A stretch of 64,000 bases of DNA from Trueperaceae bacterium (GCA_965213925.1 OZ243927.1:192001-256000), one strand, 5' to 3'. Positions 18,326 through 53,643 are shown, numbered from the stretch's first letter. The notes: generated by a model from the sequence alone, not told the origin. Numbers and translations are program-made.

Positions 18326-18356
18326 CTGTGCGCCAGATGCGCGTTACACGTAATAA
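18326..18356. repeat. 32-bp site family, copy S1 (degenerate)
   Basis: CTGTGCGCCAGAT GCGCGT TACACGTAATAA. Confidence 0.45.
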
Positions 18357-18448
18357 CGCCGCCAGCCTGAAAACTTCGATGTTTTCGCGAAAGAGGGGGC
18401 ACCACCTACAGCTTCGATACGGAGGCGGGGACGTTAGAGGTCACGCCC

Positions 18449-18880
18449 TTGGGTCACGCTTTGCTCTTGCTCGAGCTAGGCGACACCGTCATCCACGTTG
18501 ACCCTTACAGCGAGGTTGCCGACTACAGCCAACAGCCCGACGCGGACTGGGTCTGGATCACCTACGAACACGGCGATCACTTAGACCCAGCCACTCTGCA
18601 AGAGGTCGTAATTGAGGGAACGCGCTTTGTGATGGACAGCTACTCAGCCAAACAGTACACCTCGGAAGGTGCGGGAAGTGGAGGCGCAGAGAGCAACATC
18701 AACATCATGGCGAACGGCGACAGCTTAGAACTCGATGGCTTCACCTTGCAAGCCGTCCCTTCGTATAACATTGTGCGCGAGCGCGACGGCGGGCAGAAGT
18801 ATCACCCCGAAGGCTGGTACAACGGGTACGTGCTAGAAATCGGTGATTTTCGGTTGCACATCGGCGGCGACACCGAGTGC
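18449..18880 (+). pseudogene. MBL-fold metallohydrolase fragment
   Basis: IHVDP, ITYEHGDH (degraded metal motif), HPEG..NGY, GDTE; truncated. Confidence 0.7.
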
Positions 18881-19224
18881 GTGGGACGCGCTCGATGTGC
18901 AGAGCCACGGTGTAGCGCTCACACCTGACGAGCAAGAGGTGTGGGTGGCGGACAACGGCAACAAATACTTGCACCTCTTCGACGTAAGCGCTCTACCGAA
19001 AGAGGCTCCGACATATCTCGAGAGCATTGAGCTGCCGAGCCGACTGGATACAGTTTTCACGCGATGGACGTTTTGCCTACTCGGGAGGCGAGGTGATCGA
19101 CGCCGCCACACGGCAAGTCGTCGAGAAAACGTCGTCCGCTAAAGTGCGCATCCAAATCGACTTCGTGAACAAAAAGCCTATCCACGCCTATGTGCGTTAC
19201 GGGCTCAGGTATGAAACTGACTGA
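18880..19224 (+). pseudogene. YVTN/YncE-like beta-propeller C-terminal fragment
   Basis: SHGVALTPDEQEVWVAD then WIQFSRDGRFAY in another frame. Confidence 0.6.
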
Positions 19225-19308
19225 GCTGTACAAATATAAAGTGGATTTGGCGTGAGTCTGGCTGTGTGCGGCTCAGTGGCTGGACGATTGCCTTGTTGTC
19301 GTGCGGTT

Positions 19309-19340
19309 TTAGGTCGGAGTAGCGCGCAACTCGCGCAGAA
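19309..19340. repeat. 32-bp site family, copy S2
   Basis: TTAGGTCGGAGTA GCGCGC AACTCGCGCAGAA. Confidence 0.75.
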
Positions 19341-19384
19341 GGTTTATGCCAGTTTTGAGATTTGCACCGTGCTAAACTAGAGCT

Positions 19385-19780
19385 GTGGACGCCCTCGAAC
19401 TCCAACTCTCGCCCGACGCGCAAGTTGCTTTAGAAGCGCGCGCAACCGCCCATGCCCGCTCTTTGGAGGAGGAAGCGCGCGCCCTCCTCGAAGCAGCGCT
19501 CGCGGTCGAGACGCCCAACGACGTTCAGCTCGAGCAACTCACTGTTTTAGACGACGCTCAACTGTGGCAAGTTGCCAAGCAGCGTGTCGCAGACGAGCAG
19601 AGCGAACGGATGCAGGCGCTCGTCGAACGGCGGCAGCGCGAAGGTCTCACGCCCGAGGAAGCTACCGAAGCGCTGCGCTTACAGCGCTACGCCCAACAGG
19701 TGATGCGCTTGCGGGCTGAAGCGGCAGCGCTACTTAAGCGCCGGGGGCACGAGGTCGACAGCCTGCTCACCTCTTCTTAA
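19385..19780 (+). CDS. Putative antitoxin-like DNA-binding protein (FitA/RHH-like N-terminus)
   Basis: ALEARATAHARSLEEEARALL; directly upstream of an HNH gene. Confidence 0.55.
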   Translation: MDALELQLSPDAQVALEARATAHARSLEEEARALLEAALAVETPNDVQLEQLTVLDDAQLWQVAKQRVADEQSERMQALVERRQREGLTPEEATEALRLQRYAQQVMRLRAEAAALLKRRGHEVDSLLTSS

Positions 19781-19789
19781 CCTCAATAG

Positions 19790-20218
19790 GTGTCGAAAAC
19801 CAAGCTATCCCTCGCTCTACGTCGCGAAGTGGCGGCGCATTTCAACTTCCGCTGCGCCTATTGTCAAACCCAGGAAGCGGTAGCAGGGATGCGCTTTATG
19901 GTGGATCACATCATCCCAGAGGTTCTCGGAGGCAGCAGCGATACCGCGAACCTCTGCCTCGCCTGCTGGGACTGCAACCTCGCTAAGGGGCAGCGGGTCG
20001 CCGCGACCGACCCGAACACAGCTCAGCTCGTCCCGCTCTATCATCCGCGCCAACAAGTATGGCGTGAGCACTTCGAGTGGGTGGAGACAGGGCTGAATAT
20101 TGCGGGTAAGACAGCGAGCGGCAGGGCAACAGTTGAAGCCTTAACGCTCAACCGTGAGGCCCTGGTGCAAGCGAGGCGGCTCTGGATTGAGGTGGGCTGG
20201 CACCCGCCTAACGCGTAG
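19790..20218 (+). CDS. HNH endonuclease
   Basis: RCAYC, VDHIIP, NLCLAC..CN, LYHPRQQ.W.EHF. Confidence 0.9.
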   Translation: MSKTKLSLALRREVAAHFNFRCAYCQTQEAVAGMRFMVDHIIPEVLGGSSDTANLCLACWDCNLAKGQRVAATDPNTAQLVPLYHPRQQVWREHFEWVETGLNIAGKTASGRATVEALTLNREALVQARRLWIEVGWHPPNA

Positions 20219-20223
20219 CACTG

Positions 20224-20255
20224 CTGTGCAGCGAACGCGCGCAACTCGCACAGAA
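20224..20255. repeat. 32-bp site family, copy S3
   Basis: CTGTGCAGCGAAC GCGCGC AACTCGCACAGAA. Confidence 0.8.
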
Positions 20256-20697: not shown

Positions 20698-21603
20698 ATG
20701 AAAAAGCAAGGCGTCACCATCCTAGTGCTCATATTGGCGTGGGGTTCGCTTGCCCTCGCCCAGACCCCCGACGAGGAGATGAGACAAATTAAGGGTGAGT
20801 ATCGAGCGCTCATCACCGCACAGCAACCTTCTAGCGGCGACCTTAGCGAAGACGAAGAGATGAGAGAGATTAAGCGCGCGTACAGAGCCTTCAGACTCGA
20901 GCAGCAGACCGAAGCGCTCTCGAGAACCCTCGAGCTAAGCTTCGTCAACCATTTACAAGCAGGCATGGCCGCCGAACAAGACGTTCACCTCGAGCATGAG
21001 GGTGTGGGCGGCGTGTTTCGGGTTACAGCTGAAGACACTGACATGGTCACGATGCTCTACGCCGCTGCTGATGGCAAACACCACGACCCGACCAACCCGG
21101 ACGCGGTCGGACCCTTCTCCAAAGGCGTTCCTTTGGGCGTAAAGTTGGGTGATTGGCTGGCGGGCAGCGGCGAAGCTGAGGTCACGTGTCGTGACGGCTC
21201 GGCCACCATCAGCGCGAGCTTTCAACAGCTGGTTCCTAACGGCGTCTATACGCTCTGGTACTCGTTTATCGCCCTGCCGCCCACCTCACCCCTGAGCGTC
21301 ATGAACTTGCCTTTAGGCACCCGGGACGGCTCACAGAACGGCTTTGTCGCAGATGAAAACGGCAACGCGGTCTACGCGCTCGAGCTTGCCCCCTGTTTGC
21401 AGTTATCCACCGACCAGGTGGGCACGATGCTCGCGCTCAACTACCACAGCGACGGCAGAACCTACGGATTTGACCCCGGACAATTCGGCTACAACGCGCA
21501 CGTTCAACTCTTTGCGCTGCTCCCGGTTGATGAGGCGGGGGTAGCTGACGTAGAAAAGGACAACGCAAAGAGGAGTAAGCAAAACGAGTCCTACGCTTAT
21601 TGA
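20698..21603 (+). CDS. Hypothetical secreted protein
   Basis: Signal peptide (ALA-Q); internal repeat DEEMRQIK/DEEMREIK; His-rich motifs. Confidence 0.7.
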   Translation: MKKQGVTILVLILAWGSLALAQTPDEEMRQIKGEYRALITAQQPSSGDLSEDEEMREIKRAYRAFRLEQQTEALSRTLELSFVNHLQAGMAAEQDVHLEHEGVGGVFRVTAEDTDMVTMLYAAADGKHHDPTNPDAVGPFSKGVPLGVKLGDWLAGSGEAEVTCRDGSATISASFQQLVPNGVYTLWYSFIALPPTSPLSVMNLPLGTRDGSQNGFVADENGNAVYALELAPCLQLSTDQVGTMLALNYHSDGRTYGFDPGQFGYNAHVQLFALLPVDEAGVADVEKDNAKRSKQNESYAY

Positions 21604-21643
21604 TACGAGGTTGCACGACATAGTTTGCAAACTATGTCGTGCC
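21603..21643 (+). repeat. REP-like hairpin, second copy of the 364-405 element
   Basis: Perfect 30-bp palindrome at 21613-21642 preceded by ATACGAGGTT. Confidence 0.7.
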
Positions 21644-21908
21644 CATCTGTGATGGTAAGCTCTGACGCTCTCGGTAAGGAGAAGTAAACCGTGCAATTCC
21701 GTATGACTAGGAACTTGCAACGCTTTCTCTACCCTTACATCGGCGGAAACCCCTGAAACGAAGCACTCAAAAACATAGATAAAGCGCCGCTAAAGGAGGA
21801 TGGCACACTTTCAAACTCACTATGAGTGCTGCAAGGGCTGACCGGACTATCACCGGAAAGAAGTCCTACTCATCCCGTCTTTAATACATTGTTAGCAAAA
21901 TAATGACC

Positions 21909-23262: not shown

Positions 23263-23294
23263 TATGGAGAACCAACGGGCGCATTCGCGCAGAA
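23263..23294. repeat. 32-bp site family, copy S4 (right half recognisable)
   Basis: ...AACGGGCGCATTCGCGCAGAA. Confidence 0.5.
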
Positions 23295-26500: not shown

Positions 26501-26778
26501 TCCGGCAGGCTTTGAATCTTGTCCAGGAATGGCATTTGCTACCCGCGGCGCTCCACCTGCTCGTGAACTTTGCTGACCTACAGAGGGACGAAGGGCGTGC
26601 GGTCCGTCTCCTTCAGCTTGTCGTAAACCATCCCGCCAGTATGTTCGAGACCCGCGAAGCGGCGCGGCGTAGGCTCGAGGGGTTCACTCTGACCGGTTTA
26701 GACCAAAGCCTCGAGCCCGTCAGCGTCCCCGTTTTGAATGCGGTGGTTAGGGAAATCCTCTCGAGCACGCGGGGTTAG
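23512..26778 (+). CDS. SARP/BTAD-family regulator with NB-ARC-like ATPase and TPR domain
   Basis: N-terminal wHTH plus BTAD, FIGRE, PGGMGKT, LLVLDNLEH, GGMPLALELAA. Confidence 0.9.
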   Translation: MVSQVTLLGRAAIFAQTERLEPPHGKLTALLYYLAYQGDWVSRDDLVYLFYPDTLEHKAKQNLRTLLTTLRRLDYAARLETEPTRLRWNVQTDVQAFRDALEKNRPAQAVTLYRGVLLEDFSLATAPEFESWLAFERAELGRRWRRAALELASSFERDARYPQAADLLERLHRDDPFDEEVLRRYLTALTLAARASEALQTFETFTATLKRDVEGDPEAATLQLIESIRQGQRPSFAAETAVRISANMQRSHLKIPNPTTAFIGRETDIAKLSERLRDPACRLLSIVAPGGMGKTRLALEVGKRLAPGFSSGVCFVPFDAVSSPELMVSAVADALSFTFFGPQQPEEQLLEYLQSQSLLLVLDNLEHLLNDLDLVTKLLERAPKLKLLVTSRERLNLHAEWLYDLAGMNVPETDNTARDGNVQETDAVALFVQSAKQARADFTLDSNAQAVARICQLVGGMPLALELAASWLRVLSADEIAAELDQGLDLLESSLRDLPARHHDVRRVFESSWQRLSAGEQTALRKLSVFQGGFTKEAAGEVAEVSLPLLLALSNKSFVRLEASGRFTQHPLMWQYVREKAESETESFAQTQEEHAGYFAAFMYEREALHQSMAAKSVRAELEKDIANIRAAWFWAADHAREDLLSQISEGLLELYSYTRRYHEGEVLFAYAVNQLQSRSVVHGRILRNLGYLHNWQTDYLKGAEILEQSAAIFQKHRATFDEALALEYLALSHEYTFRPSHETEAVWHRCVKLFREVGDTYREARALVNISLYCRVPLERETHLRESIRLFREVESYFFGLTLGLSNLAGYLAQTHGAYQDACEHLSEAVSIERVREMMPFRLAWWLNLQGRVQSYRGNFEEASACHQEARSIGETLEPGFGAWELDHALWGLGRLAFLRGELGEAARYLNEALELNLRHPDPFGLRTDILQAQAAIALKENRFDNAAELSRAAWGHFKAHKRETYEHAWIDSFCRCQLGEIAFANGDVAEAAEYFRQALNLVQEWHLLPAALHLLVNFADLQRDEGRAVRLLQLVVNHPASMFETREAARRRLEGFTLTGLDQSLEPVSVPVLNAVVREILSSTRG

Positions 26779-27421
26779 CCAAGCCGCAGGTCAGGAGGTG
26801 GCGGGGTCTCTGGAGGACGGCTTCTTTGTCCAAGTGGACGTCACGCAAGCCGACTCCGTTCAAGCGATGGTAGAAGCCGCTAAGGAACACTACGGACAAC
26901 TCGGTATCTTAGTCAACAACGCCGGTATCGACGGCGACCAAGCGCCGACCGCCGAGACGTCGTTAGAAAACTGGCACCGCGTCATCGACATCGACCTGCA
27001 CGGCGTCTTCTACGGCATGAAGTATAGTATCCAAGCGATGAAGGCGCGGGGTGAAGGGGGCGTCGTCATCAACATGGGCTCAACAGCAGGCTTGGTCGGC
27101 TTCGAAGCTATTCCCCCCTACACCGCTTCTAAAGCCGCTGTGATTCGCCTCGCCAAGGCTGCCTCGCTCGAGTACGCCAAGGACAACATCCGCTGCTACG
27201 CCATCTGCCCCGCTGTTGTCCTCACGCCTCTAGTCGAACACTTTATCGAATCCTCACCCGACCCGGAGGAGCGCCGCGCCATGTTCGAAAACATGAACCC
27301 GGTGCCGGGCATGGCTACGCCTGAAGACGTCGCCAACACTGCGCTGTTTCTCGCCAGTGAGGAGGCGCGTTACTTGACCGGCGTCGTCGTGCCTGTGGAC
27401 GGCGGCTACACCGTGCAGTAA
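26779..27421 (+). pseudogene. SDR oxidoreductase lacking its N-terminal Rossmann motif
   Basis: NNAGI, YTASK, VDGGY present; TGxxxGxG missing. Confidence 0.75.
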
Positions 27422-29499: not shown

Positions 29500-29531
29500 T
29501 TCTGCGCGAGTTGCGCGCGTCTCTTGCACAA
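29500..29531. repeat. 32-bp site family, copy S5
   Basis: TTCTGCGCGAGTT GCGCGC GTCTCTTGCACAA; 21 nt (29498-29518) are the exact reverse complement of 19322-19342. Confidence 0.8.
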
Positions 29532-29639: not shown

Positions 29640-29917
29640 TTGTCGCTATCCCAGTCACCTTCGACGAAGCGCTTCTACTGAATGTAGCGCGTGAAAGCTT
29701 GCCTGAAAACTGGACCGAGCCTGCGGGATTATCCGTCACACAAGCGATTGGGAACGCCTGGGTCAAGCGTAACGCATCAGCACTCCTTGTGGTGCCGAGT
29801 CGTGTTATCGCGGCGGAGCAGAACTACCTCTTTAACCCGAACCATCTGGACGTCGAGCAGGTGGAGATCGGTAAGGCGCAGTCCTTCAGCTACGACCCAC
29901 GTTTACTTAAGCAATAA
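29640..29917 (+). pseudogene. C-terminal fragment of a RES-domain toxin
   Basis: LPENW, TQAIGNAW, LLVVPS.V, NYLFNPNH, YDPRL; 5' limit approximate. Confidence 0.8.
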
Positions 29918-29970
29918 GTGTCGAGTTACAAGTAATGTCCCTTGGTCTTTGACCGCTGCGGTCATTAGCT

Positions 29971-29989
29971 TTGTGCAACAGTTGCACAG
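29971..29989. repeat. 32-bp site family, copy S6 (left arm and spacer only)
   Basis: TTGTGCAACAGTT GCACAG. Confidence 0.4.
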
Positions 29990-30090
29990 CAATCCAGTGT
30001 ACCCATTCCTTTCGGTGCTGAGTTGGATATGCTCACCATCACTTCTTCGGAGAGACAAAGCTTAGAAAAGGCGTATTATGTCCTTTCCAT

Positions 30091-33034: not shown

Positions 33035-33066
33035 TTGTGCGCCAGACACGCGCAACCGCCGCAGAA
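33035..33066. repeat. 32-bp site family, copy S7
   Basis: TTGTGCGCCAGAC ACGCGC AACCGCCGCAGAA, followed by an extra TTCTGCG half-arm at 33071. Confidence 0.75.
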
Positions 33067-33409
33067 AATTTTCTGCGAGGTAGTCTTTAAGCAGAGCACG
33101 TTTGGGTAAGCGTAGAACACCTTTTCGGCTACTCAATTAGGGCGTACGTATGCACGCCAATTCTTTGGAAGAAGTCGCTGTGAACCTTTCGAAACGAAAA
33201 CAGAGTCCGCTCGAAGAGGGTATAAAGCCGAATTCTGTCCCTTGAAAAGCTGTATATCGAATGCGAATAGGACGTCACAAATCTACATGCGTAAGCCATC
33301 ACCTTGAAGGTGATGGACCAGCACCTGGTGCTTGTGGTAGCATAACAATAAGCATAGGTTATAACACAACTCTAAAAACAGCAGTTTGTTAAAATCAACT
33401 CTAAACACA

Positions 33410-35040: not shown

Positions 35041-35136
35041 AGAGATTTTTAATATGGTTTTCGGGTAATACGGTTTCCGGGTAGTTCCTACGGGAATGAC
35101 CCCGAACAAGGAGCCCTCAGCGAAAGGTGCTACCTT

Positions 35137-37655: not shown

Positions 37656-37688
37656 GATGCTTCTATCATGCCATAGAGGGAAAACTCG

Positions 37689-38189: not shown

Positions 38190-38198
38190 ACGCCCTCC

Positions 38199-39878: not shown

Positions 39879-39917
39879 ACAGTGTAGTCTCCAGTCTCTA
39901 GCGATGTTTACTGGTAT

Positions 39918-40916: not shown

Positions 40917-41065
40917 CCCCGCGCGAAGTTCAAGAAGTACATCCCGAACCAGGTCACTAAGATCACCGCCGCGAGAAAGGTGGTTACCAAGATAGCCCCG
41001 ACGGGGCGCGGCGCGCGCTCCTCTCGACGTTCTTTTGGCTTAGTTTCGGCTTGCTCGTCGTTCAT
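40913..41065 (-). CDS. cbaD: ba3-type oxidase subunit IIa (50 aa; absent from the ORF track)
   Basis: MNDEQ...PVGAILVTTFLAAVILVTWFGMYFLNFARG; AAGGAG RBS; stop overlaps the cbaB TTG start. Confidence 0.85.
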   Translation of the reverse strand: MNDEQAETKPKERREERAPRPVGAILVTTFLAAVILVTWFGMYFLNFARG

Positions 41066-41186
41066 ATTCTTCTCCTTTACGCTCATTCAGTAGAGTGTCG
41101 CCATGCGGCGGAAGGGGACCTACCACTGCGGCTCACTTTCTGAACTCAAGCTGCCGCCCAGCATATGAGGTTTCGCGTCCAGGACG

Positions 41187-41227
41187 TGTCCGAACTGCTC
41201 TGACACGGTGTGGGAAAAAGTCCTACA
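41187..41227. promoter_or_regulatory. Tandem 19-bp palindromic boxes upstream of the cba operon
   Basis: TGTCCGA-N5-TCTGACA and TGTGGGA-N5-TCCTACA. Confidence 0.55.
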
Positions 41228-41267
41228 AACTGGGATTGGGATTATGTCAGCGGGTAGAGTCCTAGGG

Positions 41268-41309
41268 CAAAAAGAACGAGGTGCGTAGGAGACCCCCGCA
41301 CCTCTTTTT
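41268..41309 (-). terminator. Intrinsic terminator of the response regulator gene
   Basis: GAGGTGCG/CGCACCTC stem with T-tracts on both sides. Confidence 0.6.
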
Positions 41310-41340
41310 CTACATTGAGCCATCATCTCATAGACGGCAC

Positions 41341-41973
41341 TTAACTCAACATGTTCTGCTCCAGCGCCCACCTGACTAGCTCCGCCCGCGTCTTGAGCCC
41401 GAGCTTCTCCGCCGCCCGCTCGCGGTAGGTCGCCACCGTCTTCTCGCTGATGCCGATAACGTGGGCGATCTCCTTATAGGTGCGCCCGTGCGCGATATGC
41501 TCGACGACTTCTAGCTCTCTATGGGTGAGCTTCACGTTGCGGTAGGGGTCGGGTTCCGCCATCTCTTTAGCGAGTTCAGACAGGAGTTTAGCAGGTGCAT
41601 AGTATTCACCCCGCGATACGGCGGCAATCGCGTCTAAAAGCTGCGTCTCGACCGCGCTTTTAGGCACGTAGCCTGACCCGCCCGCTTCTAAAAAGCCCTG
41701 GACGTACTCGGGCTCTTCGTGCATGGAAAGCGCGATAAAGCGCGTTGCGGGAACCTGTGGGCGCAGGGCTCGAGTCGTCTCGATACCGGAAAGCCCCGGC
41801 AAGGTCAAGTCACACACGACGATATCGGGTGCGATCTGTGGCACCTTCTCCAACGCTTCCTCGCCGCTCTCCGCCTCACCGACGACCTCGATATTCTTGG
41901 ACTCCAAGAGCATCCGAATGCCGGAGCGCACCACAGCGTGATCGTCGATTAAGAAGACTTTTAAGTGTTGCAT
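41341..41973 (-). CDS. NarL/LuxR-family response regulator
   Basis: DDHAVVR receiver, phospho-Asp in VVCDL, HTH LTHRELEV..ISEKTV. Confidence 0.95.
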   Translation of the reverse strand: MQHLKVFLIDDHAVVRSGIRMLLESKNIEVVGEAESGEEALEKVPQIAPDIVVCDLTLPGLSGIETTRALRPQVPATRFIALSMHEEPEYVQGFLEAGGSGYVPKSAVETQLLDAIAAVSRGEYYAPAKLLSELAKEMAEPDPYRNVKLTHRELEVVEHIAHGRTYKEIAHVIGISEKTVATYRERAAEKLGLKTRAELVRWALEQNMLS

Positions 41974-42031
41974 ATTAGGGAACTCCTCTGTCCTTACTTT
42001 AGGGCAGCATAGCGGATTCACTCGCCGCCTC

Positions 42032-42074
42032 TGTAGGAGAAAGTCTGACGGGGCGTGTCGGAATGTCGCTGATG
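42032..42074. promoter_or_regulatory. Second pair of the same boxes, upstream of the response regulator
   Basis: TGTAGGA-N5-TCTGACG and TGTCGGA-N5-GCTGATG. Confidence 0.45.
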
Positions 42075-42949
42075 ATGGCGTCGATGACGCCCTTTCATAA
42101 GCCGTCGTCCTCGGCCAGGGCGAGGTCCCAGGTAAAGCGGCTGCCCAGCTCGAGGCCGTCTAAAATGAGGTCGCCCGGTTTATTTTTGCTTTGGTTCATT
42201 TCTGTTAGGCGAGCGCAAGTTTATACAAGACGGTACGCGTGACTAAATTTTATGCTCGAGACGAATCTGAGACAGAGGAGGATCGCTATCTGCCCCTCCG
42301 AAGGTACCGTGACCCTAGAGCTGACCCCCGGCTTGTCCTTCGCTCGTACGAACCTCTACCTCTCGACAGACGCGAGCGATCCTTTAGCGGCGACGCTCGA
42401 AGCGGTCACGCTCGCCCCCGGCTTAGAGGACATCACGGTAGGTCGCGACGACAACGCCTTCTCCGCCGTCGAGCGCATCTTCGTCTTCACAAACGGTCCG
42501 ACTGGCGGAGACAATCCGCACCGCCAGGGCTTAAATAGCGCGATAGCCGTTTGATTGAAGAGTTTCAGATTTTAGGCTTCGTCGAGCAGGGCTGGATCAC
42601 GGGTCCGGGCGGCGAGCCTTACGGGTCGGTCGGGATTATCGTGAATCGCCCGATCGTCTTCCGCTTCAAGGCTGTTAGCCATTAACTTTTAGCCACTTCG
42701 CTTGCGCCGCATCTTAAAGTTTCGCCTCTTCAGCACGAATACTAAACTAACGGTTTGAGCCCTCCTTTTCGTCTTCGCTTCTGCTAGACTACTTAAGAGG
42801 GCTCCTTCTGTCAGCGCAATGAAGTTTAGAATTTGTGTCTTGCTCTCTTTAGCATTTGCAGGTTTCCTTGACACACCTGTCAAGGAAACCCAAGCGGATG
42901 CGAGTACCAATAGACCAGTGTGTCAATGACTGATGCAAATGCTGCTTAA

Positions 42950-43034
42950 TGCCGAGAAGGGGACTTGAACCCCTACCTCCTCAACGGAGACTAGCCCCTC
43001 AAGCTAGCGCGTCTACCTATTCCGCCACCTCGGC
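42950..43034 (-). tRNA. tRNA-Leu(GAG)
   Basis: GCCGAGG/TCTCGGC acceptor, CTAGC-TTGAGGG-GCTAG anticodon arm, long variable arm, GTTCAAGT T-loop; no encoded CCA. Confidence 0.95.
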
Positions 43035-43327
43035 TTGTTTGCGCACTACAAAGCGCAAAAGCGATAATACTTGCTTTTGCAAGGGCGTGTCAAGCGCGAA
43101 GAGGTCGGATACCCTAAACGTTGCAGGTCTCAAAATCTTTAGAGTCTCAGTCGCTTCTCAAACCTCTTAAAGCGTTCGCTAAAAACGTGGTTTCGACAGA
43201 CGACGCTAAATTGCGACTCAAGACGCTCATGTAATCAGGAATGGTCGCCCGCAGCCGCGATTGAACTCGCCGCAAAAATATGCTAAATTAACGGGCGTCA
43301 CAAAATTCTTGGGAAGGTAACCTTTTT

Positions 43328-44152
43328 ATGACCTCTGTGAGTTATGTAAGGAGCGGTTTGTGGGTCCTTATGGGTACGCTGCTTCTGAGCGGGTGCGGGC
43401 TGCTGCGCCCTTTTGTCGGCAGCCGTTCGGCGTCTTTAGAAATTGCGGGCGACAGCCCGACGCTGGTTGTCGCCCAAGCGAGTGAGAGCGGTTTTGCCGC
43501 GATTGCTGCTTCAGACATCTCGAGCACCTTCGTTGAGAGCATCCCGCAGCCCATTGGCGAGAGCGTTTTTGTCGAGACAGAAAACCGCGACCGGGCCCCC
43601 AGAGGTCTCAAGCCCGTCCGCTTTCAAGAGACGGTCGGTTTCGCGCCCGACGCGACGGTTGCACTTAACCCCGACGCGGTAACGGCGGGCCTGACAACGG
43701 ACGCGCTGCCCGAGCAGCTCATCCTCACCGACGTCACCCTCGTCATCGCTACCTTCGACGGTGCTTACGACGGTCTCGCCTCGCTGCCACCCATCACCGC
43801 ACCTGAAAGTTTCTTTCTGCTTTCGTCCTATAGCAGCGACTTCGAGACGCCGCTCACCCTCGAGAAAGGCACCTGCGAGGACGCGACCTGTACGTACAGC
43901 TTTAGCGACCCTGAGGCGGCGGCTCGCGCGGTCGAGGTGCGTGTAGATAACACTGAACGTGAGGTCGAGGTGGAGGGCGAAACCCTCGTCATCGAGCCCT
44001 TTAATAGCCTTTACGAAATCCGTACGGGCGGTGACGAGACGAATACCAGTAACGTTAACGTGGTGATAAGCGGAGCTGGGCTTGGTGAAGCGTTGGTGGG
44101 CGCAGCCGTCACTTTTGAATTCGTCACGAGCGACGGTAAGACGGTGTTGTAG
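43328..44152 (+). CDS. Hypothetical lipoprotein
   Basis: Lipobox LSGC; 274-aa ORF followed by a terminator. Confidence 0.7.
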   Translation: MTSVSYVRSGLWVLMGTLLLSGCGLLRPFVGSRSASLEIAGDSPTLVVAQASESGFAAIAASDISSTFVESIPQPIGESVFVETENRDRAPRGLKPVRFQETVGFAPDATVALNPDAVTAGLTTDALPEQLILTDVTLVIATFDGAYDGLASLPPITAPESFFLLSSYSSDFETPLTLEKGTCEDATCTYSFSDPEAAARAVEVRVDNTEREVEVEGETLVIEPFNSLYEIRTGGDETNTSNVNVVISGAGLGEALVGAAVTFEFVTSDGKTVL

Positions 44153-44170
44153 TTAAGCGTCACTAGAGGT

Positions 44171-44213
44171 AAAGCAGCTCGAGGCTTTATAGACGGGTCT
44201 CGAGCTGCTTTTT
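44171..44213. terminator. Bidirectional terminator
   Basis: AAAGCAGCTCGAG...CTCGAGCTGCTTTTT between convergent genes. Confidence 0.8.
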
Positions 44214-44232
44214 CACGCCTCGGCTTACAGTA

Positions 44233-45621
44233 CTATTCCACGCCCGCTTTTTCCAACTCCTCGCGCGTCTCGTCGAACTCCTCGCGACCCATCAGCGCGT
44301 AGGTGTACTTTTTGCCAAGTTCGACGCCGGGCTGGTTGTAGGTGTTGACGAAGGTGAGTTCGCCCATCAAGGCCGTTTGCCACTCCAAAAACTGCAGGAG
44401 CATCCCTAGGTGATGCGCGTCGAGCTTGTCTAGCGTGAGCGTGTAGTTGGGCCGTCCGTGGTCCAAAATCGCGTGGGCGGTGGCGGCTTGCTCCGCGTTG
44501 ATAAGTTTGTTGAAGGTCTTCTCCGCTAGGTAGGCTAGCTCGTCGAGCTCGGGCTCCGCGTCGGGGATCGTCTCGGTCTGGTCGAAGGTTCCGACGCGCA
44601 CGAACGTGAAGAGCTTGTTGTTTGGACCCTCGTTAAAAAGCTGAACCTGCGAGTGCTGGTCGGTCGCCCCTAGCGCCGCTAGGGGCGTGCTGCCCTCATG
44701 AACCAAGCTGCCGTTGCGGTCCTCGGACTTGCCCAAAGACTCCGCCCAGAGCTGCACGAACCAGTCTGAGAGGTAGCGTAAGCGGGTGCTGTAGGGCATC
44801 AAGACGCTGATGGGCTTGCCGCGGCGATACGCCAAGTATTGGATGATAGCGGCTTGCTTGATAGGGTTGTCGGCAATCGGCTTCGACACCATCTCGTTCG
44901 CTTCAGCGGCACCTTGTAAAAGTCCGCGCACGTCGAGACCGGCTAGCGCAATGGGTAAAAGCCCTACCGCTGAAAGGACGCTAAAGCGTCCACCAACCGA
45001 GGGAGGTACGACGAACGTCGTGTAGCCTTCACGTTCGGCGAGAGGGCGCAAGATGCCTGTCTCGGGGTCAGTGGTGGCGATGATCTGATTTTTGTAGGCG
45101 TCACCCACGCCCTCTTTGAGCCACGCCTTAAACGCCAAATACGCCGCCATCGTCTCCGCGGTTGTGCCCGACTTGCTGATGACGTTGACGAGTGTGGTTA
45201 CAGGGTTTAAGACCTCTAAGAGCCCATGCACCGCGTCCGGGTCTACGTTGTCGACAAAGTGGACGCGCAGCCCGTCGCCGTTCTCCTGCATGTTCCGGTA
45301 AGGATGCTGGAGCGCGTTGATCACCGTGATGCCGCCCAAGCTCGAGCCTCCGATCCCCAACACCGCCAGGTCCGTATACTTCGTATCGACGTTCTCGGCG
45401 TACTCTAAAATCCGCTCGACTTCTCCGGAGGTCGATTCAGGGCCGCCACTGGGCAGGTCGATCCAGCCGAGCATCTCGTCCGGGTTGTCCTTTTTGCCCA
45501 CGAGATTGTTGACGAAATTATCTACTGTCTCGCTCCACGCGCCGAATTCGCGCTCTAAGTCCAAGCCGTGCGTGTCCCCTAAGCGTTCGCTGCTTACGTT
45601 TTTGGTGTCTATTTTTATCAT
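44233..45621 (-). CDS. pgi: Glucose-6-phosphate isomerase
   Basis: GIGGSSLG, SKSGTTAET, VGGRFSVLS, QLWAESLGK, QPGVELGK. Confidence 0.97.
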   Translation of the reverse strand: MIKIDTKNVSSERLGDTHGLDLEREFGAWSETVDNFVNNLVGKKDNPDEMLGWIDLPSGGPESTSGEVERILEYAENVDTKYTDLAVLGIGGSSLGGITVINALQHPYRNMQENGDGLRVHFVDNVDPDAVHGLLEVLNPVTTLVNVISKSGTTAETMAAYLAFKAWLKEGVGDAYKNQIIATTDPETGILRPLAEREGYTTFVVPPSVGGRFSVLSAVGLLPIALAGLDVRGLLQGAAEANEMVSKPIADNPIKQAAIIQYLAYRRGKPISVLMPYSTRLRYLSDWFVQLWAESLGKSEDRNGSLVHEGSTPLAALGATDQHSQVQLFNEGPNNKLFTFVRVGTFDQTETIPDAEPELDELAYLAEKTFNKLINAEQAATAHAILDHGRPNYTLTLDKLDAHHLGMLLQFLEWQTALMGELTFVNTYNQPGVELGKKYTYALMGREEFDETREELEKAGVE

Positions 45622-46126
45622 GAAGGCACTCTACTACAAACCCTTCGAGGGGGTGTTGTCTCGAGTTTGACGAACCGCCAAGCTCAAAGCTGTGTGCCTC
45701 GTAGCTGTTGGGCGAATATCCCCAATCCCACTCATTGAAAATTACCTCCCCAATTTCGTCAGGCGACCGGCGCATGACATCTTTGGTTTCGAATTCGTTT
45801 AACGCTGTTAGAAGCTCCGAAGTGGGTTCTTTCATAAACGCTTGATTGAGATAAGCTGCTGAGAGAGGTTGAAGCTCGGTGATCTGCGCAGACTGCTCTG
45901 CTAACTGCGGCACATCAACTTCCAGACCGACCTCGTTAAGACGAGCCCCTACGTCGCCCGGCGTGTCCGCGCGTGCCTGTCGGCGGCCCTCACCCAAACG
46001 GTGCAGTGGCGGCTCTTAGCTCACCCTCTATACGCGCTTCTACGCTCTGGCGCTCGGCTGTGGGCTGCGCCGCGTTGAGCGAGCCATAACCCATTAGACC
46101 ACACCTAGTAATGGAAAGCCCAATAG

Positions 46127-46162
46127 ATAGAGACCCCACTCAAAAGTGAGTGGGGTCTCTAT
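46127..46162. terminator. Strong hairpin downstream of the tRNA-Arg 3' fragment
   Basis: 16-bp perfect stem ATAGAGACCCCACTCA/TGAGTGGGGTCTCTAT. Confidence 0.75.
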
Positions 46163-46189
46163 GGACCGTCTCTGACGTTCTTTTCGTAA

Positions 46190-46232
46190 TGCGCCCGAGA
46201 AGATTCGAACTCCTGGCCTTCTGATCCGTAGT
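46190..46232 (-). mobile_element. 3' half of tRNA-Arg(ACG); probable att site of an integrative element
   Basis: ACTACGGATCAGAAGGCCAGGAGTTCGAATCTTCTCGGGCGCA: anticodon loop, T-arm and acceptor 3' strand; 5' half absent. Confidence 0.85.
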
Positions 46233-46504
46233 TACTCGCAGGCTGTGATTAGGTTCAGTAAGGGCTTTGAAATTTGCGTCCGAGAGGCATGTCCTGTCCG
46301 TGCGCCTCTTAAAGTCTCCACAAGTTTACCAAGCTTGCGGGGGGAGCGCGGGGGGAAACTGATCGCCGGCTGCCCGACGCTAGCCGTGTACCGGCAGACC
46401 TGCCGGGCTGAGCGACCGTGCTCCCAAAGTGCGGCCGACTTCTCACCAAACGCATACCTCCCGCAGGACGGCATTGAGCGGCCACACCTGGCCGCCGTGC
46501 CCCG

Positions 46505-47215
46505 TTAGGCGAAATGCCTGCCCTCGAGCCTGTAGCGGGGGTGGGCGGCGATGCTCCTGTGGTCCGCCTCCCCGAAGGCCAGCGCGTCCCCGCCCGGGTC
46601 CCCGGCCGTCACCCGCCGCCGGTGCTCGCTGAGCGCGACGTATGCCCGGAGGCCGCGCAGGATTTCGCGCCTGACTCCCTTCTCTTTGAGAGTGAGCGCC
46701 CCGCCCTGCGGCCGCTTGTAGTTGCGGCGCGGCAGTGCCAGCCGGTCGAGCGTCGTGGCGGGGCAGGCCTCGACCACCACGCGCGACGCCGTGGGCAGGC
46801 ACCGATATCGGAAGGGCAGGACGGCGGTGCCCGGCGTCCGCAGGAGCGGGGCCAGCACGTCGCGCATGCCGAAGAAGGTCTGGTAGATGACCCGGTAGTG
46901 GTAGGGGTCGTGGGGCGCCCTGTGCTCCAGGTCGGTCAGCCGCCGCAGGTGCTTGCGCCCGAAGCCCTCCTCGGACCTGCGCACCAGCTCGAGCCCCAAA
47001 CCGTAGGCGTCGTCGCCCCACCCTTCTACCAGCTCGAGCTGCTCGCCCCACGCCCCGGCGACCTCCAGCGGGAAGCCGAAGGGGAAGCCCAGCCCCCAGA
47101 GGCAGCCGCCGGAGAAGGCGATCATGCCGGTGAGGTACCCGAGGGCCGGGGCGCGCTCCGCCGAGCCGCACAGCCTCCGGAGCGGCCTCAACATCGTCAA
47201 GGCGAATGGCGGCCC
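46505..47215 (-). pseudogene. DUF429-like protein lacking its N-terminus
   Basis: GFPFGFP, RRLTD, VVEACPA, GGDAL; very high GC. Confidence 0.5.
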
Positions 47216-47965
47216 TCCCCCCGAGGAGGGCTCGAGCCTAGACGTGCGCAGCGCCCGCGCGAGCGACCAGAGCCCAGCAGCAGCGGGTACATCTTCGTCG
47301 TTGACGATAACCGCGATGTAAACGTCGTCTTCGACTAGATACGCGACGACTGCATTGAATCCGACGATGCCACCACTATGCTCGAGCATGAGCCCCGGAC
47401 CTGCCTCTTCGCCGGGCGTGTCGGTCAGTTGAACGCCGCGTCCATAGTACGTCTGGGTGCCGAGCGGGGCTGGAATCAGCGGCTGCATTGGGTACATCTG
47501 CGCGAACGCGGCGTGGACGACATCTACAGGCAGCACCTCACCCGCGAGGAGCGCGTGCCAAAAGGTGACGAGGTCTTCGGCTGTCGAGGCGAGCGCCCCG
47601 GCAGTGTAGGGGGTTGCGTAATCGAGAGGTGTGTCGAGCAGCGTGTCACTAGGTACGCCGCTAGCGTGTCCCGTCACGACGGTGGGCAGTTCAATGCCTG
47701 GCTCCCGCATACGGGTGTGTTCCAACGCGAGCGGGCCCAAGATGCGTTCGGCAAGCACCTCGCGAAAGGGCTCTGCCCCTCGACACGCTCCACGATGCGC
47801 CCAAGCATGACGTAGCCGGTGTTGGAGTACGACCAGTAGGTGCCGGGACAGAAGAGGGGCGCGTAGTCAGCAGCGGTATATATGAGCGCTTCAGGTGTAC
47901 GGTAGCCTAAGCCGAGGCTGCGCCCGTCCGGAAGTGCATTGAAGCTGACCAGACCGCTCGTGTGC
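47216..47965 (-). pseudogene. Serine hydrolase (class C beta-lactamase family) fragment, frameshifted
   Basis: HTSGL, YSNTGYVMLG, AGALASTAEDL, HSGG; SxxK region missing. Confidence 0.8.
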
Positions 47966-48443
47966 TCGACTCCGCGTCCGAATACTCCACCGGACGCTGT
48001 CCAAAGGACGCGCCGCTGCCCCGCGCGTCCACTAGCACGAGCGCGTATTCCTGGTTGTTCCAGAAAGAAGCTTCGCTCAGGTTGGGAACCGTCTCTTTGT
48101 CTAAAGCGGTGAGCAAACGCTGGAGCGGACCTAGCGCATGAGCACGCCAATAGCGGGTCGTTTTGATGAGCGCAGGTATTCGCTCATCAGCTTGCAAGTC
48201 GGCGGGCAGCCACACGTCGGCGGCGAGCCGCGTTCCGCCCCACACCGTGAGATAGTGCGAGCTGTTGCGCGTGTAACCAGCGGGAACGCGCTCGCTGCCC
48301 CGCAACGGTCGGGTCGTCAAATAGAGGGCGGCGAGCGCCGCGCCGAGGACGCCTACCCCGCACATCCCCAAACCGATGAGGCGCACGCGCTTTCGCCTCG
48401 AGCCCGAGTCACGTCTTGACTTGATATTTCGAATCACCTTCAT
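47966..48443 (-). pseudogene. CocE/NonD family hydrolase N-terminal fragment
   Basis: GTRLAADVWLP, TRYWR, VDARGSGASFG. Confidence 0.8.
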
Positions 48444-48487
48444 CCTTTCGTCTGCCCCTAATAAGCATTCGGGTAGAGTAAGGTGAG

Positions 48488-49148
48488 ATGCAAGCGCCTC
48501 CCTCACCCGAGCACGTTCATGTCGTCGCGGACGAAGCTGCTGCGCAGGTCCTTCTCGGTGCCGAAGCGCGGCGCTGGTTCGCCCCTTTTTTAGCGCGAAC
48601 CTCTTCGGTGAGCGCCGCCGCCAAGCTGTTAGGGGAGAAGCCGAACTCGGTGCTCTACCGCGTTAAGCGGTGGCGCGAACTCGGTCTACTCGAGGTGCAG
48701 CGTGAAGAAGCGCGTAGAGGGCGCACGCTCAAGCTCTACCGCTCAGTCGCGGACGCCTTTTTCGTTCCTCACGGGGTAAGTTCAAGTGAGACCTTGGTCG
48801 AACTACTGCACCACACCAACGCGCCTTATCTCGACACGCTTTACCGCGGTCTCGTGAGCGCTGCGCGCACGTTGTCGCCCGACTGGGGCGTTCAGGTGTT
48901 TCGCTCGGGCACAGAGGTGAAGATAGGTGCAGCTTTCAGCGCCAGGCAAAGTTTACGACCCGTGGGACAGCCGGAGTCCCGCTGCGCTCGAGCAGTTCAC
49001 TCACCTTCAGCTCGACTTCGAGGACGCAAAAGCGTTTCAGCTCGAGCTTCTCGCTCTTTTGGAGAAGTATGGACAAAAGCGAGGTGCTCAGCGCTATTTA
49101 AGCTACTTAGCGCTGGCACCGCTGGAGCGATCAAATGAGGCGGTATAG
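48488..49148 (+). pseudogene. Winged-helix (ArsR-like) regulator, frameshifted near 48950
   Basis: SVSAAAKLLG..VLYRVKRW..LGLL; C-terminus LQLDFEDAKAFQLELLALL in a second frame. Confidence 0.65.
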
Positions 49149-49178
49149 GTGTGCTGTTTGGCTGTTGGTGTGATTCGC

Positions 49179-49210
49179 TTCTGCGTGAGACGCACGCGTC
49201 TGGGGCACAG
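49179..49210. repeat. 32-bp site family, copy S8
   Basis: TTCTGCGTGAGAC GCACGC GTCTGGGGCACAG. Confidence 0.8.
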
Positions 49211-50635: not shown

Positions 50636-50668
50636 CTGTGCGACAAACGCATGCTGTTAGTTGCAGAA
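50636..50668. repeat. 32-bp site family, copy S9 (one extra base)
   Basis: CTGTGCGACAAAC GCATGC(T) GTTAGTTGCAGAA. Confidence 0.7.
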
Positions 50669-50868: not shown

Positions 50869-52686
50869 ATGAAAAGACCATCCGCAGACGTATGGCGAGA
50901 AGCGAAGGACCTCCTATGGCGCTACCGGCGAGGCCTAGGTATCGGCTTCGCCCTGATGATCGTGAACCGTCTGGCAGGCTTCGTCCTGCCCGGCAGTTCA
51001 AAGTTCCTGATCGACAACGTGATCGGCCAGGGGCAGGCGGGGCTTCTTCTGCCTCTGGTGCTCGCAGTAGGTGCGGCGACCGTGATCCAAGCGGTGACGA
51101 CCTTCTCGCTCTCACAGGTGGTGAGCGTGGCGGCGCAGGGCGCAATCATGGAGATGCGCCGCCGCGTACAGGAGCAGGTTACCCGGCTGCCCGTCCGCTT
51201 CTTCGACGACACTCCGTCGGGCGTTCTCATCTCGCGCATCATGACGGACGCCGAGGGGGTCCGCAACCTCATCGGCACGGGTATCATCCAGCTCGTGGGG
51301 GGCGTTCTAACCGCAACCCTGGCGCTCGGCGTGCTCTTCTATCTCAACTGGCTCCTCACCGCGGCCATCCTCGTCTTCTTGCTGCTCTTCGGTGGAGCGA
51401 TGGCACTGGCTTTCTCGCGTCTGCGCCCCATTTTCCGCGAGCGCGGGCAGATCAATGCGGAGGTCACAGGTAGGCTAGCTGAGACCCTGGGCGGCATCCG
51501 CGTGGTCAAGGCCTACCGGATGGAGGCGCGCGAGCAGCGGGTCTTCGGCGAGGGGGTGGCGCGGCTCTTCGCCAACGTCAAACGCTCGATCACCGGCACC
51601 TCGGCCGTCACCGCCTTCGCGACCGTGATCGTCGGCGCGGTCGGCGTGCTGATGATCCTCTTCGGCGGGCGGGCCATCCTCTCAGGCGCGATGACGCTGG
51701 GTGACCTGGTGATGTACGCAGCCTTCGTCGGCATCCTGGCCGCGCCCGTCGTCCAGATCGCCGCCATCGGCACCCAGGTGAGCGAGGCGTTCGCGGGGCT
51801 CGACCGCATCCGCGAGCTTATGAGCATGAGCACCGAGGAGGACGAGGACGAGGGGCGTGAGCCGCTGCCTCGGGTGGAGGGGGAGGTAGTCTTCGAGGAC
51901 GTCCGCTTCGCCTACGACCCGGGCGTGCCCGTCCTCAAAGGGGTCTCGTTGCGCGCGCCCGCCGGAACGACCACCGCGCTGGTGGGCTCCTCGGGCTCAG
52001 GCAAGAGCACCCTGGTGAGCCTCATCATGGCCTTTAACCGCCCCGACGAGGGGCGTGTCACCGTGGACGGGCGCGACCTCGCCCGCGTCAAGCTGGGTGA
52101 CTACCGCACGCAGCTGGGCGTGGTGCTGCAAGAAAATTTCCTCTTCGGCGGCACGGTGGCCGACAACATCCGCTTCGCCCGCCCCGACGCGACCCCGGAG
52201 GAGGTCGAGACGGCGAGCCGCCTCGCCAACGCCGACGTGTTCATCCGTGCCTTTCCGGACGGTTACGACACGGTCGTCGGCGAGCGCGGCGTGAAGCTCT
52301 CGGGCGGGCAGCGGCAGCGCGTCGCCATCGCCCGGGCGCTCCTGGCCGACCCACGAATCCTGATCCTGGACGAGGCGACGAGCAGCTTAGACAGCGAGAG
52401 CGAGGCGCTCATCCAAGAGGGGCTGCAGCAGCTCAAGCAGGGCCGCACCTCGTTTGTAATCGCGCATAGGCTCTCCACGATCCGCAGCGCCGACCAGATC
52501 CTGGTATTGGAAGCCGGCGAGGTCATCGAGCGGGGCACCCATGCGGAACTTTACGCCAAGAACGGGCGCTACCGCGAGCTACACGAGCGGCAGAACGCCT
52601 GGGAGGGGAACGCCTTCGTCAACCCCGGCGAGGACTACTTGCCAGCAGTCGGAACCCGAGCTAAACCTTCTAGCTCGCCGCGCTGA
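50869..52686 (+). CDS. ABC exporter, fused TMD-NBD (MsbA/MdlB-like)
   Basis: GSSGSGKS, LSGGQRQR, ILDEATS, IAHRLST. Confidence 0.95.
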   Translation: MKRPSADVWREAKDLLWRYRRGLGIGFALMIVNRLAGFVLPGSSKFLIDNVIGQGQAGLLLPLVLAVGAATVIQAVTTFSLSQVVSVAAQGAIMEMRRRVQEQVTRLPVRFFDDTPSGVLISRIMTDAEGVRNLIGTGIIQLVGGVLTATLALGVLFYLNWLLTAAILVFLLLFGGAMALAFSRLRPIFRERGQINAEVTGRLAETLGGIRVVKAYRMEAREQRVFGEGVARLFANVKRSITGTSAVTAFATVIVGAVGVLMILFGGRAILSGAMTLGDLVMYAAFVGILAAPVVQIAAIGTQVSEAFAGLDRIRELMSMSTEEDEDEGREPLPRVEGEVVFEDVRFAYDPGVPVLKGVSLRAPAGTTTALVGSSGSGKSTLVSLIMAFNRPDEGRVTVDGRDLARVKLGDYRTQLGVVLQENFLFGGTVADNIRFARPDATPEEVETASRLANADVFIRAFPDGYDTVVGERGVKLSGGQRQRVAIARALLADPRILILDEATSSLDSESEALIQEGLQQLKQGRTSFVIAHRLSTIRSADQILVLEAGEVIERGTHAELYAKNGRYRELHERQNAWEGNAFVNPGEDYLPAVGTRAKPSSSPR

Positions 52687-52718
52687 GGCGGTTGTGGTTT
52701 GCGTAAGCAAGACGACCT

Positions 52719-52750
52719 TTATGCAACTAACGCGTGCGTCTCGCGCAGAA
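52719..52750. repeat. 32-bp site family, copy S10
   Basis: TTATGCAACTAAC GCGTGC GTCTCGCGCAGAA. Confidence 0.8.
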
Positions 52751-52892
52751 GCCCTCACACATCTGCCACTTGGTCAGCTGTAGGACAGCGAGGCGAGCAA
52801 AGTAGCATTGAATAAGCGCGCAGTGCTACATTGCGGTATTAGAATTGCACACGTTCTAACTCTGGGTCGATAGCCTCATAAGGGAGCGCATC

Positions 52893-53465
52893 ATGACAAC
52901 CCCCGAGCCCCAGTCCAAAGCTGACATCGTCGCTGCCCTCGACCTCCTGCGTACCGAAGGTTTATCCTTCTGGGCGTCGCTACCGCCCGAGCGCTTCGTC
53001 ACCCCCTTCGGGGAGTCCTGGTCTTCGGCTGACAACTTGCGCCACCTGATTCGGTCCACGATCCCCCTAGCGCAAGCGTTCGCGCTGCCGGGGGTGATGC
53101 TCGAAGCCCGCTTCGGCACTCCACAACGTCCGTCGCGTTCCTTCGGAGCGCTACGCGATGACTACCTCGAGCGGCTCGGGGTCGGGGTCGACGCGGGCGA
53201 CTACGCCCCGCCGAAAGTAGCACCACCTGCCGACCCAGCTACCTATCAACGTGATCTACTCGTCCGCTCCGGCAAGGTGCTTGCAGACCTAACGGCGGCG
53301 GTGACCAGATGGGACGAAGCCAAGCTCGATACCTACCAACTACCCCATCCGCTGCTGGGCGACTTGACGCTGCGCGAGATGCTCTTTTTTACGCTCTACC
53401 ACTACGCGCATCACCAGCAGAATGTCGCCCGGCGGCTGGCTGCTGTGGGCGGACCAACGAGCTAG
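52893..53465 (+). CDS. DinB family protein
   Basis: WS..DNLRHL, PHPLLGDLTLREML..HYAHH. Confidence 0.9.
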   Translation: MTTPEPQSKADIVAALDLLRTEGLSFWASLPPERFVTPFGESWSSADNLRHLIRSTIPLAQAFALPGVMLEARFGTPQRPSRSFGALRDDYLERLGVGVDAGDYAPPKVAPPADPATYQRDLLVRSGKVLADLTAAVTRWDEAKLDTYQLPHPLLGDLTLREMLFFTLYHYAHHQQNVARRLAAVGGPTS

Positions 53466-53611
53466 CGGGCGCAGCAGGCGCGTAGGTAAAGGTATCTTCG
53501 TCTACCGTTAGCGTCATCTGCGGCTAAAGTAGTTTCCCGTAGAGTGAGTTGCAAGGTTACTCGTGAGGTAGTCGCCAAAGCTTATCGGTGAGGTGGCGGG
53601 GCGCGGTGCAT

Positions 53612-53643
53612 TTGTGCGCCAGTTGCGCGCGTTCGCCGTAAAA
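53612..53643. repeat. 32-bp site family, copy S11
   Basis: TTGTGCGCCAGTT GCGCGC GTTCGCCGTAAAA. Confidence 0.75.

Follow-up and report, generated by a model that had tools for sequence, protein, structure and literature searches.

Site-delimited shuffling of small gene modules has so far been documented mainly for integrons and for the Xer-dependent dif modules of Acinetobacter plasmids. In the latter, one report (PMC13141974) describes modules whose inner arms are of one kind (C/D modules), sites whose own two arms differ, and crossovers between sites with matching 6-bp spacers. In our study, we analyzed a 64-kb stretch of DNA with 59.5% G+C from a Trueperaceae bacterium (GCA_965213925.1, OZ243927.1:192001-256000; hereafter, the window), in which a first-pass annotation had proposed 11 lox/dif-like sites at the junctions between gene modules. 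We identified in it a genuine family of 32-bp sites, each consisting of two 13-bp arms around a 6-bp centre. This family fails the defining tests, as they stand, for plasmid dif (pdif) sites, for attC sites, for repetitive extragenic palindromic (REP) elements and for terminators, and it appears not to fit miniature inverted-repeat transposable elements (MITEs). The reading that we tentatively favour, with a probability of roughly 0.4, is that these are junctions or crossover points in double-stranded DNA, by which small gene modules are assembled into arrays.

The sequences given by the first-pass annotation are present at all 11 of its coordinates; eight of them are full sites, but the remaining three (18326, 23263 and 29971) are half sites or decayed copies. 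The exact 13-6-13 architecture is found in seven of the 11 (19309, 20224, 29500, 33035, 49179, 52719 and 53612). The spacers that it listed are likewise there, namely GCGCGC four times, ACGCGC/GCGCGT, GCACGC/GCGTGC and GCATGC, but the centre of 50636 is 7 bp long (GCATGCT). When each of the seven copies was scored with a matrix built from the other six, six copies obtained 29.2-45.0 bits and 53612 obtained 17.5 bits, whereas the best scores in 20 Markov-simulated windows had a mean of 9.8 and a maximum of 16.5 bits. A repeat finder independently recovered the family as its groups D3, D7, I3, I9 and I10, and scans with full-site and half-site matrices found no further full copy in the window outside 18.3-53.6 kb. 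Because the similarity among the site-bearing gaps is restricted to the 32 bp, a larger repeat unit around the sites was rejected. The idea that GCGCGC is simply a rare word was rejected as well, given its 65 occurrences in the window.

To look beyond the window, genome contigs were scanned with a permissive 20-letter degenerate half-site pattern, which matched at least 108 loci. Among the 108 matches listed, the full-site matrix identified 107 as chance matches to the half pattern and found full sites in a single locus, L048. This locus comes from a Trueperaceae metagenome-assembled genome (CBDBZX010000008.1) and carries five full sites in 10 kb, starting at 1242, 4988, 7117, 8886 and 9951; where the two sets are compared, start coordinates are preceded by w for the window and by L for L048. 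The left half of w53612 is identical to a half site of L048 at 22 of 22 nt. Apart from the sites, blastn and tblastx revealed nothing common to L048 and the window; at least two genomes thus carry the family, scattered among genes that are unrelated. No copy was found in the plasmids of PLSDB, where a blastn search with the best site returned 14 records that we consider chance matches because all of them are partial (coverage of at most 79%, E values of at least 2). In the literature on palindromes, REP elements, small noncoding repeats and attC sites of Deinococcus and Truepera, we found no description of this family, and the available portion of PMC9764985 gives no Deinococcus dif sequence.

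The placement of the sites is far from random. On a Pfam-supported gene map, non-coding gaps of at least 80 bp account for 21.6% of the window, and each of the 11 window copies falls in such a gap (P about 5e-8), as the intergenic placement originally proposed would have it; all 16 copies (11 in the window and five in L048) are outside confirmed genes. Of these gaps, 10 of 30 hold a site, and all of these fall within two blocks (runs test, P = 0.002): the sites occupy six of seven consecutive gaps at 18.2-33.4 kb and four of four at 49.1-54.0 kb, and none of the other 19. The family does stand at the gene-module boundaries where it had been placed, and it forms two arrays there, extending over 18.3-33.1 kb and 49.2-53.6 kb. 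Each site-to-site segment contains one to four recognised genes, except for the 16-kb stretch from 33035 to 49179. The window copies lie between co-directional genes in seven cases, between convergent genes in two and between divergent genes in two (18326 and 50636); a gene 3' end precedes nine of the 11, several of them 5-71 bp past the stop codon. The sites of L048 are also found at gene ends, two of the five between convergent genes.

This arrangement recalls an integron, in that 14 co-oriented plus-strand open reading frames (ORFs) at 18.4-35 kb are interrupted, past stop codons, by sites of imperfect symmetry, and in that the array needs no adjacent integrase, as is the case in attC clusters without an integrase. 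In contrast, attC sites are longer than 32 bp and act as folded single strands, whereas the sites described here measure 32 bp and do not fold, and the modules between them comprise up to three or four genes, with genes of up to 1088 aa. Neither intI nor attI nor Pc was found in the window, and no integrase family was recognised among its 68 ORFs.

Special attention was given to the symmetry of the sites. The alignment of 12 of them (seven from the window and five from L048) gives the consensus TTGTGCAACAGAC GCGCGC AACTCGCGCAGAA, in which the arms follow approximately TTSTGC-N3-WG-WY. Conservation is concentrated in the outer hexamers (TTSTGC / GCASAA) and in the centre; the centre is the most conserved block, and its C15, G16, G18 and C19 are the same in all 12 sites. 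Only three to nine of the 13 arm positions are Watson-Crick complementary, and the mismatches are systematic: position 3 pairs in one of the 12 sites, position 7 in three and position 8 in none. Folded as single-stranded DNA, the 12 sites have z-scores between -1.97 and +0.76, and their minimum-energy folds are mostly not the dyad hairpin; folded as RNA, on both strands, they have z-scores between -2.23 and +0.11. There is no covariation between the arms, since the share of alignment cells that pair is 59.6%, compared with 61.6% after shuffling, and a score as high was reached by 431 of 500 shuffles. No T-run follows the sites, a terminator scan of 18-34 kb flagged none of the seven sites located there, and no Rfam family matches the sites, tRNA-Leu being the sole match in the window. 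Hairpin-based readings are therefore unsupported, because folding is no better than in shuffles and covariation is absent; the REP, attC-like and terminator readings are not supported by these results together with those on T-runs and the terminator scan. The folding and covariation results agree with the two-armed duplex sites of the first-pass annotation rather than with hairpins, and the dyad symmetry is of the type in which a protein recognises a pair of half sites on double-stranded DNA. As had also been claimed, the sites keep no fixed position relative to promoters, the distance to the next start codon ranging from 44 to 638 bp. Four full sites (w49179, w53612, L1242 and L4988) lie between convergent genes, and the genes that adjoin the sites share no functional theme; an operator is unlikely on these three counts.

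We compared the 26 arms of the 13 full sites, taking the expectation from column shuffles. Three pairs of arms from different sites are identical over all 13 positions, as against 0.145 expected (P = 0.001), nine pairs agree at 12 or more of 13 positions (P = 0.0005), and 27 pairs agree at 11 or more, as against 11.1 expected. This excess of near-identical pairs over the shuffles indicates that the arms, which form at least five lineages, are copies by descent rather than sequences that each came to match a binding preference independently. Among the three identical pairs, the partner arms have just 7, 9 and 6 of 13 positions in common, the background mean being 7.7, and over 312 pairs the identity of two arms is not related to the identity of their partner arms (r = -0.04). 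From these comparisons, the two arms of one site have independent ancestries. In w53612/L8886 and w19309/w29500, near-identity ends at or just beyond the centre; in w49179/L4988, identity is weaker past the centre, yet the far arm still agrees at 9 of 13 positions. Relatives over the whole site also occur, in w52719/L4988 (arms agreeing at 12 and 11 of 13) and in w29500/L8886 (again 12 and 11 of 13). A crossover at the central spacer would yield independent ancestry of the two halves, and an exchange of flanks at the centre is the simplest account of the mixing of half sites.

In several of these respects, the family resembles pdif sites: in both, a site has two unlike arms and a 6-bp spacer, half sites are reassorted, and the sites part small modules whose accessory genes include regulatory, toxin-antitoxin-like and efflux genes. 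A pdif module has inner arms of the same kind, and here there is a weak likeness between the facing arms of a module (P about 0.035-0.04). The differences are that the spacer, variable in pdif sites, is conserved here and consists entirely of G+C; that there are at least five arm lineages instead of the two pdif classes; that orientation does not alternate throughout, as pdif modules require; and that the sites lie in a chromosome, close to cox, pgi, glmS and tRNA-Leu.

If the sites are junctions of this type, a recombinase-type protein encoded outside the window would bind both 13-bp arms and exchange DNA at the conserved GCGCGC centre. Each exchange would leave a site with one arm from each parent, and the insertion of new segments at existing sites would give rise to local arrays, with hybrid sites between modules of one to four genes. 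Enzymatic exchange within the spacer, the movement of modules and the identity of the enzyme are what we infer from the pattern of the sites. A more ambitious proposal would be a chromosomal gene-shuffling system of Trueperaceae, in which lox-like 13-6-13 sites, with GCGCGC as the crossover region and interchangeable arm lineages, would be used by an unlinked recombinase to insert, excise and invert modules of one to four genes and thereby to assemble cassette arrays locally, by analogy with integrons and pdif modules; we consider it possible but doubtful.

It is important to note that a number of observations weigh against crossover sites of this kind. All the statistics come from just 13 full sites in 74 kb of DNA (eight in the window and five in L048). 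No tyrosine or serine recombinase, and no xer gene, was recognised among the 68 ORFs of the window or the 18 ORFs of L048; the earlier statement that the window encodes no recombinase is correct for these two families, but a Tn7-like tnsA/tnsB pair is present at 57.7-60.3 kb. Regarding the sites themselves, their length of 32 bp (13-6-13, one with a 7-bp spacer) departs from the 28 bp of pdif, in which an XerC arm and an XerD arm flank the 6-bp spacer, the least conserved arm bases are those adjoining the spacer, and an all-G+C spacer is unusual for strand-exchange regions. The likeness of facing arms is marginal: their identities out of 13 are 6, 4, 3, 11, 10, 8, 10, 12 and 9 in the window and 10, 7, 8 and 7 in L048, with a mean of 8.08 versus 7.15 for random pairs (P = 0.04), and five of the 13 reach 10 or more as against 2.2 expected (P = 0.034). 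The best of them belong to the ABC exporter module (12 of 13, between the right arm of 50636 and the left arm of 52719) and to the BTAD-to-GGDEF-EAL module (11 of 13). Orientation alternates over five consecutive sites only (23263 to 50636), 19309/20224/23263 and 50636/52719 being in direct orientation. The genes between sites have GC and GC3 (G+C at third codon positions) like those of the rest of the window; the accessory status that had been assigned to the two regions is not borne out by this native-like GC3, and a foreign base composition of the modules, of which none was seen, was rejected. Lastly, direct repeats of at least 5 nt flank three of the 13 sites, as against 0.39 expected (P = 0.006), and these are not predicted by conservative recombination, whereas a transposition-like spread of the unit does predict them. 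The repeats, at 19309, 29500 and 50636, are 5-6 nt long and lie at most 2 nt from the site ends, although their offsets differ and the other 10 sites have none that long. Their sequences are GGTT(T), AATCC and GTGTGC, respectively; the first two are near reverse complements, and each prolongs the conserved flank on the outer side of the TTCTGCGCGAGTT-type arm.

These flanking repeats speak in favour of an explanation that we judge unlikely, in which the sites are a dispersed mini-repeat with a REP- or MITE-like lifestyle, spread by transposition-like copying, whose halves are mixed by short-homology recombination, single-strand annealing or gene conversion at the GCGCGC core, with neither a dedicated recombinase nor mobile modules. 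Arms related by descent, whole-site relatives in two genomes and the lack of a recombinase gene nearby, in the window as in L048, are all in keeping with it. The small noncoding repeats (SNRs) of Deinococcus radiodurans are longer mosaic units than the sites described here. According to PMC1978522, D. radiodurans has 295 SNRs and D. geothermalis none; lineage-specific bursts of intergenic repeats are thus known in the phylum, and the present family resembles the SNRs as a lineage-specific intergenic expansion in Deinococcota with a mosaic make-up. It also resembles REP elements and bacterial interspersed mosaic elements (BIMEs), being short, lineage-specific, strictly extragenic, mostly located at gene 3' ends and divided into discrete sequence subtypes, but the stable imperfect hairpin by which REP elements and their REP-associated tyrosine transposases (RAYTs) are defined is absent in the tests above, leaving a REP-type single-strand mechanism without its hairpin. 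As for MITEs or the ends of insertion sequences, the unit has no internal segment, its arms abutting the 6-bp centre, and the flanking repeats, present at three of the 13 sites, differ in their offsets, where a target duplication of fixed length would be expected. Like the sites, the dRS3 repeats and intergenic mosaic elements of Neisseria are short repeats with inverted ends; the Neisseria repeats delimit mosaic intergenic regions, act as targets of recombination or integration and are linked to rearrangements. They differ from the sites in sequence, size and phylum, and no associated phage or transposase was seen here. In addition, scattered copying would not fill nearly all the gaps of two zones and none elsewhere, it does not predict matched arms across modules, and the 6-10 bp of core that the sites have in common are few for homologous recombination.

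The remaining explanations invoke no movement of DNA. Binding of a host protein (nucleoid-associated, insulator-like or related to topology) at the ends of transcription units, with no exchange of DNA, seems to us rather improbable, despite agreeing with the double-stranded two-armed architecture without a hairpin, the conserved spacing and centre, and the placement at gene ends (7 of 11 co-directional and 2 of 11 convergent in the window, 2 of 5 convergent in L048). It leaves unexplained why identical arms occur at unrelated loci of two genomes beside partner arms that are not related. Against it are also the persistence of decayed copies and half sites and, in our reading of the gene map, four convergent junctions in the rest of the window (2137-2351, 11642-12056, 35041-35136 and 44153-44232) that are free of sites. 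That the sites act as RNA or single-stranded DNA hairpins, whether as intrinsic terminators, as REP elements used by a RAYT or as attC-like folded sites, is very improbable: the dyad symmetry on paper and the nine of 11 window copies after a gene 3' end would suit it, but the folding energies, the missing covariation, the systematic mismatches at positions 3, 7 and 8, and the negative T-run, terminator and Rfam results do not. Even less credible is a set of operators for a transcription factor controlling a regulon; a palindrome-like motif in intergenic DNA, twice between divergent genes (18326 and 50636), would be expected of it, but the variable distance to start codons, the four full sites between convergent genes and the unrelated neighbours are not, and no sigma-70-like promoter in 18-34 kb overlaps a site.

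The individual copies of the first array differ considerably in their preservation. The half site at 18326..18357, without an assigned strand, has one good arm, CTGTGCGCCAGAT, with the spacer GCGCGT (half-site score of 18.2 bits) and an unrecognisable other arm; it lies between the divergent genes of an aldo-keto reductase (minus strand) and a split MBL-fold hydrolase (plus strand). The full site at 19309..19340 (+; 31.4 bits, this and the following full-site scores being leave-one-out values; repeat families D3 and I9) combines a degenerate left arm, TTAGGTCGGAGTA, with GCGCGC and the right arm AACTCGCGCAGAA, 166 bp past the hydrolase stop codon and 44 bp ahead of an RHH gene. The one at 20224..20255 (+; spacer GCGCGC; 36.4 bits) is 5 bp past the stop codon of an HNH endonuclease gene. 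At 23263..23294 (+), 8 bp past the stop codon of a molybdopterin oxidoreductase gene, there is a decayed site with the spacer CGGGCG, in which one can recognise only the right arm, CATTCGCGCAGAA, itself shortened by a 1-nt deletion (19.1 bits, with the site itself included in the matrix). The best copy, 29500..29531 (-; 45.0 bits; families I3, I9 and I10), reads TTCTGCGCGAGTT GCGCGC GTCTCTTGCACAA and lies 177 bp past a PAS-GGDEF-EAL gene. It is followed by a solo arm, TTGTGCAACAGTT, at 29971..30002 (no assigned strand; half-site score of 17.2 bits), without a partner arm, in an 847-bp gap whose sole ORF, 29691-30065, has a low GC3 of 0.55. The last site of this array, 33035..33066 (+; spacer ACGCGC; 32.7 bits; family D7), is 71 bp past a TetR gene.

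In the second array, the full site at 49179..49210 (-; spacer GCACGC; 29.2 bits) is placed between the convergent genes of an unknown protein of 216 aa (plus strand) and a GGDEF protein (minus strand). The 33-bp site at 50636..50668 (+), which reads CTGTGCGACAAAC GCATGCT GTTAGTTGCAGAA with its 7-bp spacer, lies between the divergent GGDEF and ABC exporter genes, and the full site at 52719..52750 (+; spacer GCGTGC; 33.7 bits) is 32 bp past the ABC exporter gene. The full site at 53612..53643 (no assigned strand; spacer GCGCGC; 17.5 bits), with a weaker right arm, separates the convergent genes of DinB (plus strand) and of an unknown 221-aa ORF (minus strand). A 29-nt inverted repeat pair with 90% complementarity, intergenic at both ends, has one copy adjoining this site (53764-53792) and the other upstream of glmS (62932-62960).

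The modules delimited in this way are the split MBL-fold hydrolase; RHH and HNH; an unknown 301-aa protein with the molybdopterin oxidoreductase; BTAD-NB-ARC-TPR, SDR and PAS-GGDEF-EAL; FAD monooxygenase, DoxX and TetR; GGDEF; the ABC exporter; and DinB. The 301-aa protein (ORF 20698-21603) had been labelled a RES toxin, a label that was not confirmed: the protein matches no family in Pfam, NCBIfam or PHROGs. An ESM Atlas search with it returned unnamed clusters only. The smallest site-flanked module (19385-20218) encodes a FitA-like RHH protein of 131 aa together with a 142-aa HNH endonuclease that is similar to IscB and Cas9d in its HNH region; the sites on either side of it stand 915 bp apart in direct orientation, with 92% identity between their right halves over a length of 24 nt. 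Regarding orientation, the TTCTGC-type arm is distal to the upstream stop codon in five of six clear co-directional cases; a dependence of site orientation on the upstream gene was rejected, as a looser count (7 of 8, P = 0.07) is not significant.

Our study also identified other elements in the window. A Tn7-like element (56369-62551) lies downstream of glmS (60722-62551, minus strand), the classic position for such an element, with three copies of its end repeat AGTCCAGAACTTT at 60629-60687, tnsA at 59706-60314 and tnsB at 57754-59967; for tnsB, Pfam gave no match and the assignment comes from PDB 7pik_A (E = 1e-80). No tnsC and no left-end repeat were recognised in the window, the adjoining eutB (55494-56363) lacks its N-terminal half, and the element is probably decayed. 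A link between the 32-bp sites and tnsA/tnsB was rejected, since the end repeats are unrelated to the arms and no left end is found in the window.

A second repeat family, with a unit of about 106 nt, has two copies, 302-406 (+) and 21603-21706 (-), which are 83-85% identical and lie just 3' of the upstream stop codon in the same relative orientation, after an RlmL-like gene (416-1597) and the gene of the 301-aa protein, respectively. Its consensus fold has 32 pairs, five of them compensatory between the two copies, and includes a long hairpin; no Rfam family matches it, and either a structured RNA or a MITE is possible. In addition, a 31-nt inverted repeat (42851-42943; 77% complementary, with 31 nt between the arms) abuts the tRNA-Leu gene (42950-43034, minus strand), the only tRNA gene of the window. 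Split or truncated genes occur both within and beyond the site arrays, at 9747-10720, 13251-13949, 15414-15680, 18449-19142, 26738-27421, 47907-48506 and 55494-56363. They include a GH3 fragment, a LacI-family fragment, a two-ORF AI-2E transporter, a DUF475 tail, the two-frame MBL hydrolase, an SDR in which some 33 positions at the N-terminal end of the profile are missing, a fragment of an S15 peptidase and the half eutB, and may be either real pseudogenes or frameshift errors of long-read assembly.

Even on an ordinary reading, these results describe a repeat family for which we found no earlier description, with palindrome-like sites that would have been selected not to be palindromes, and the family provides precise markers of rearrangement in an uncultured lineage. 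If the sites are indeed crossover junctions between modules, they would represent a third site-delimited module-shuffling system, chromosomal, in Deinococcota, and with its own site architecture. In that case, the assembly of accessory genes in this manner would have evolved repeatedly, and Trueperaceae would contain a new site-enzyme pair.

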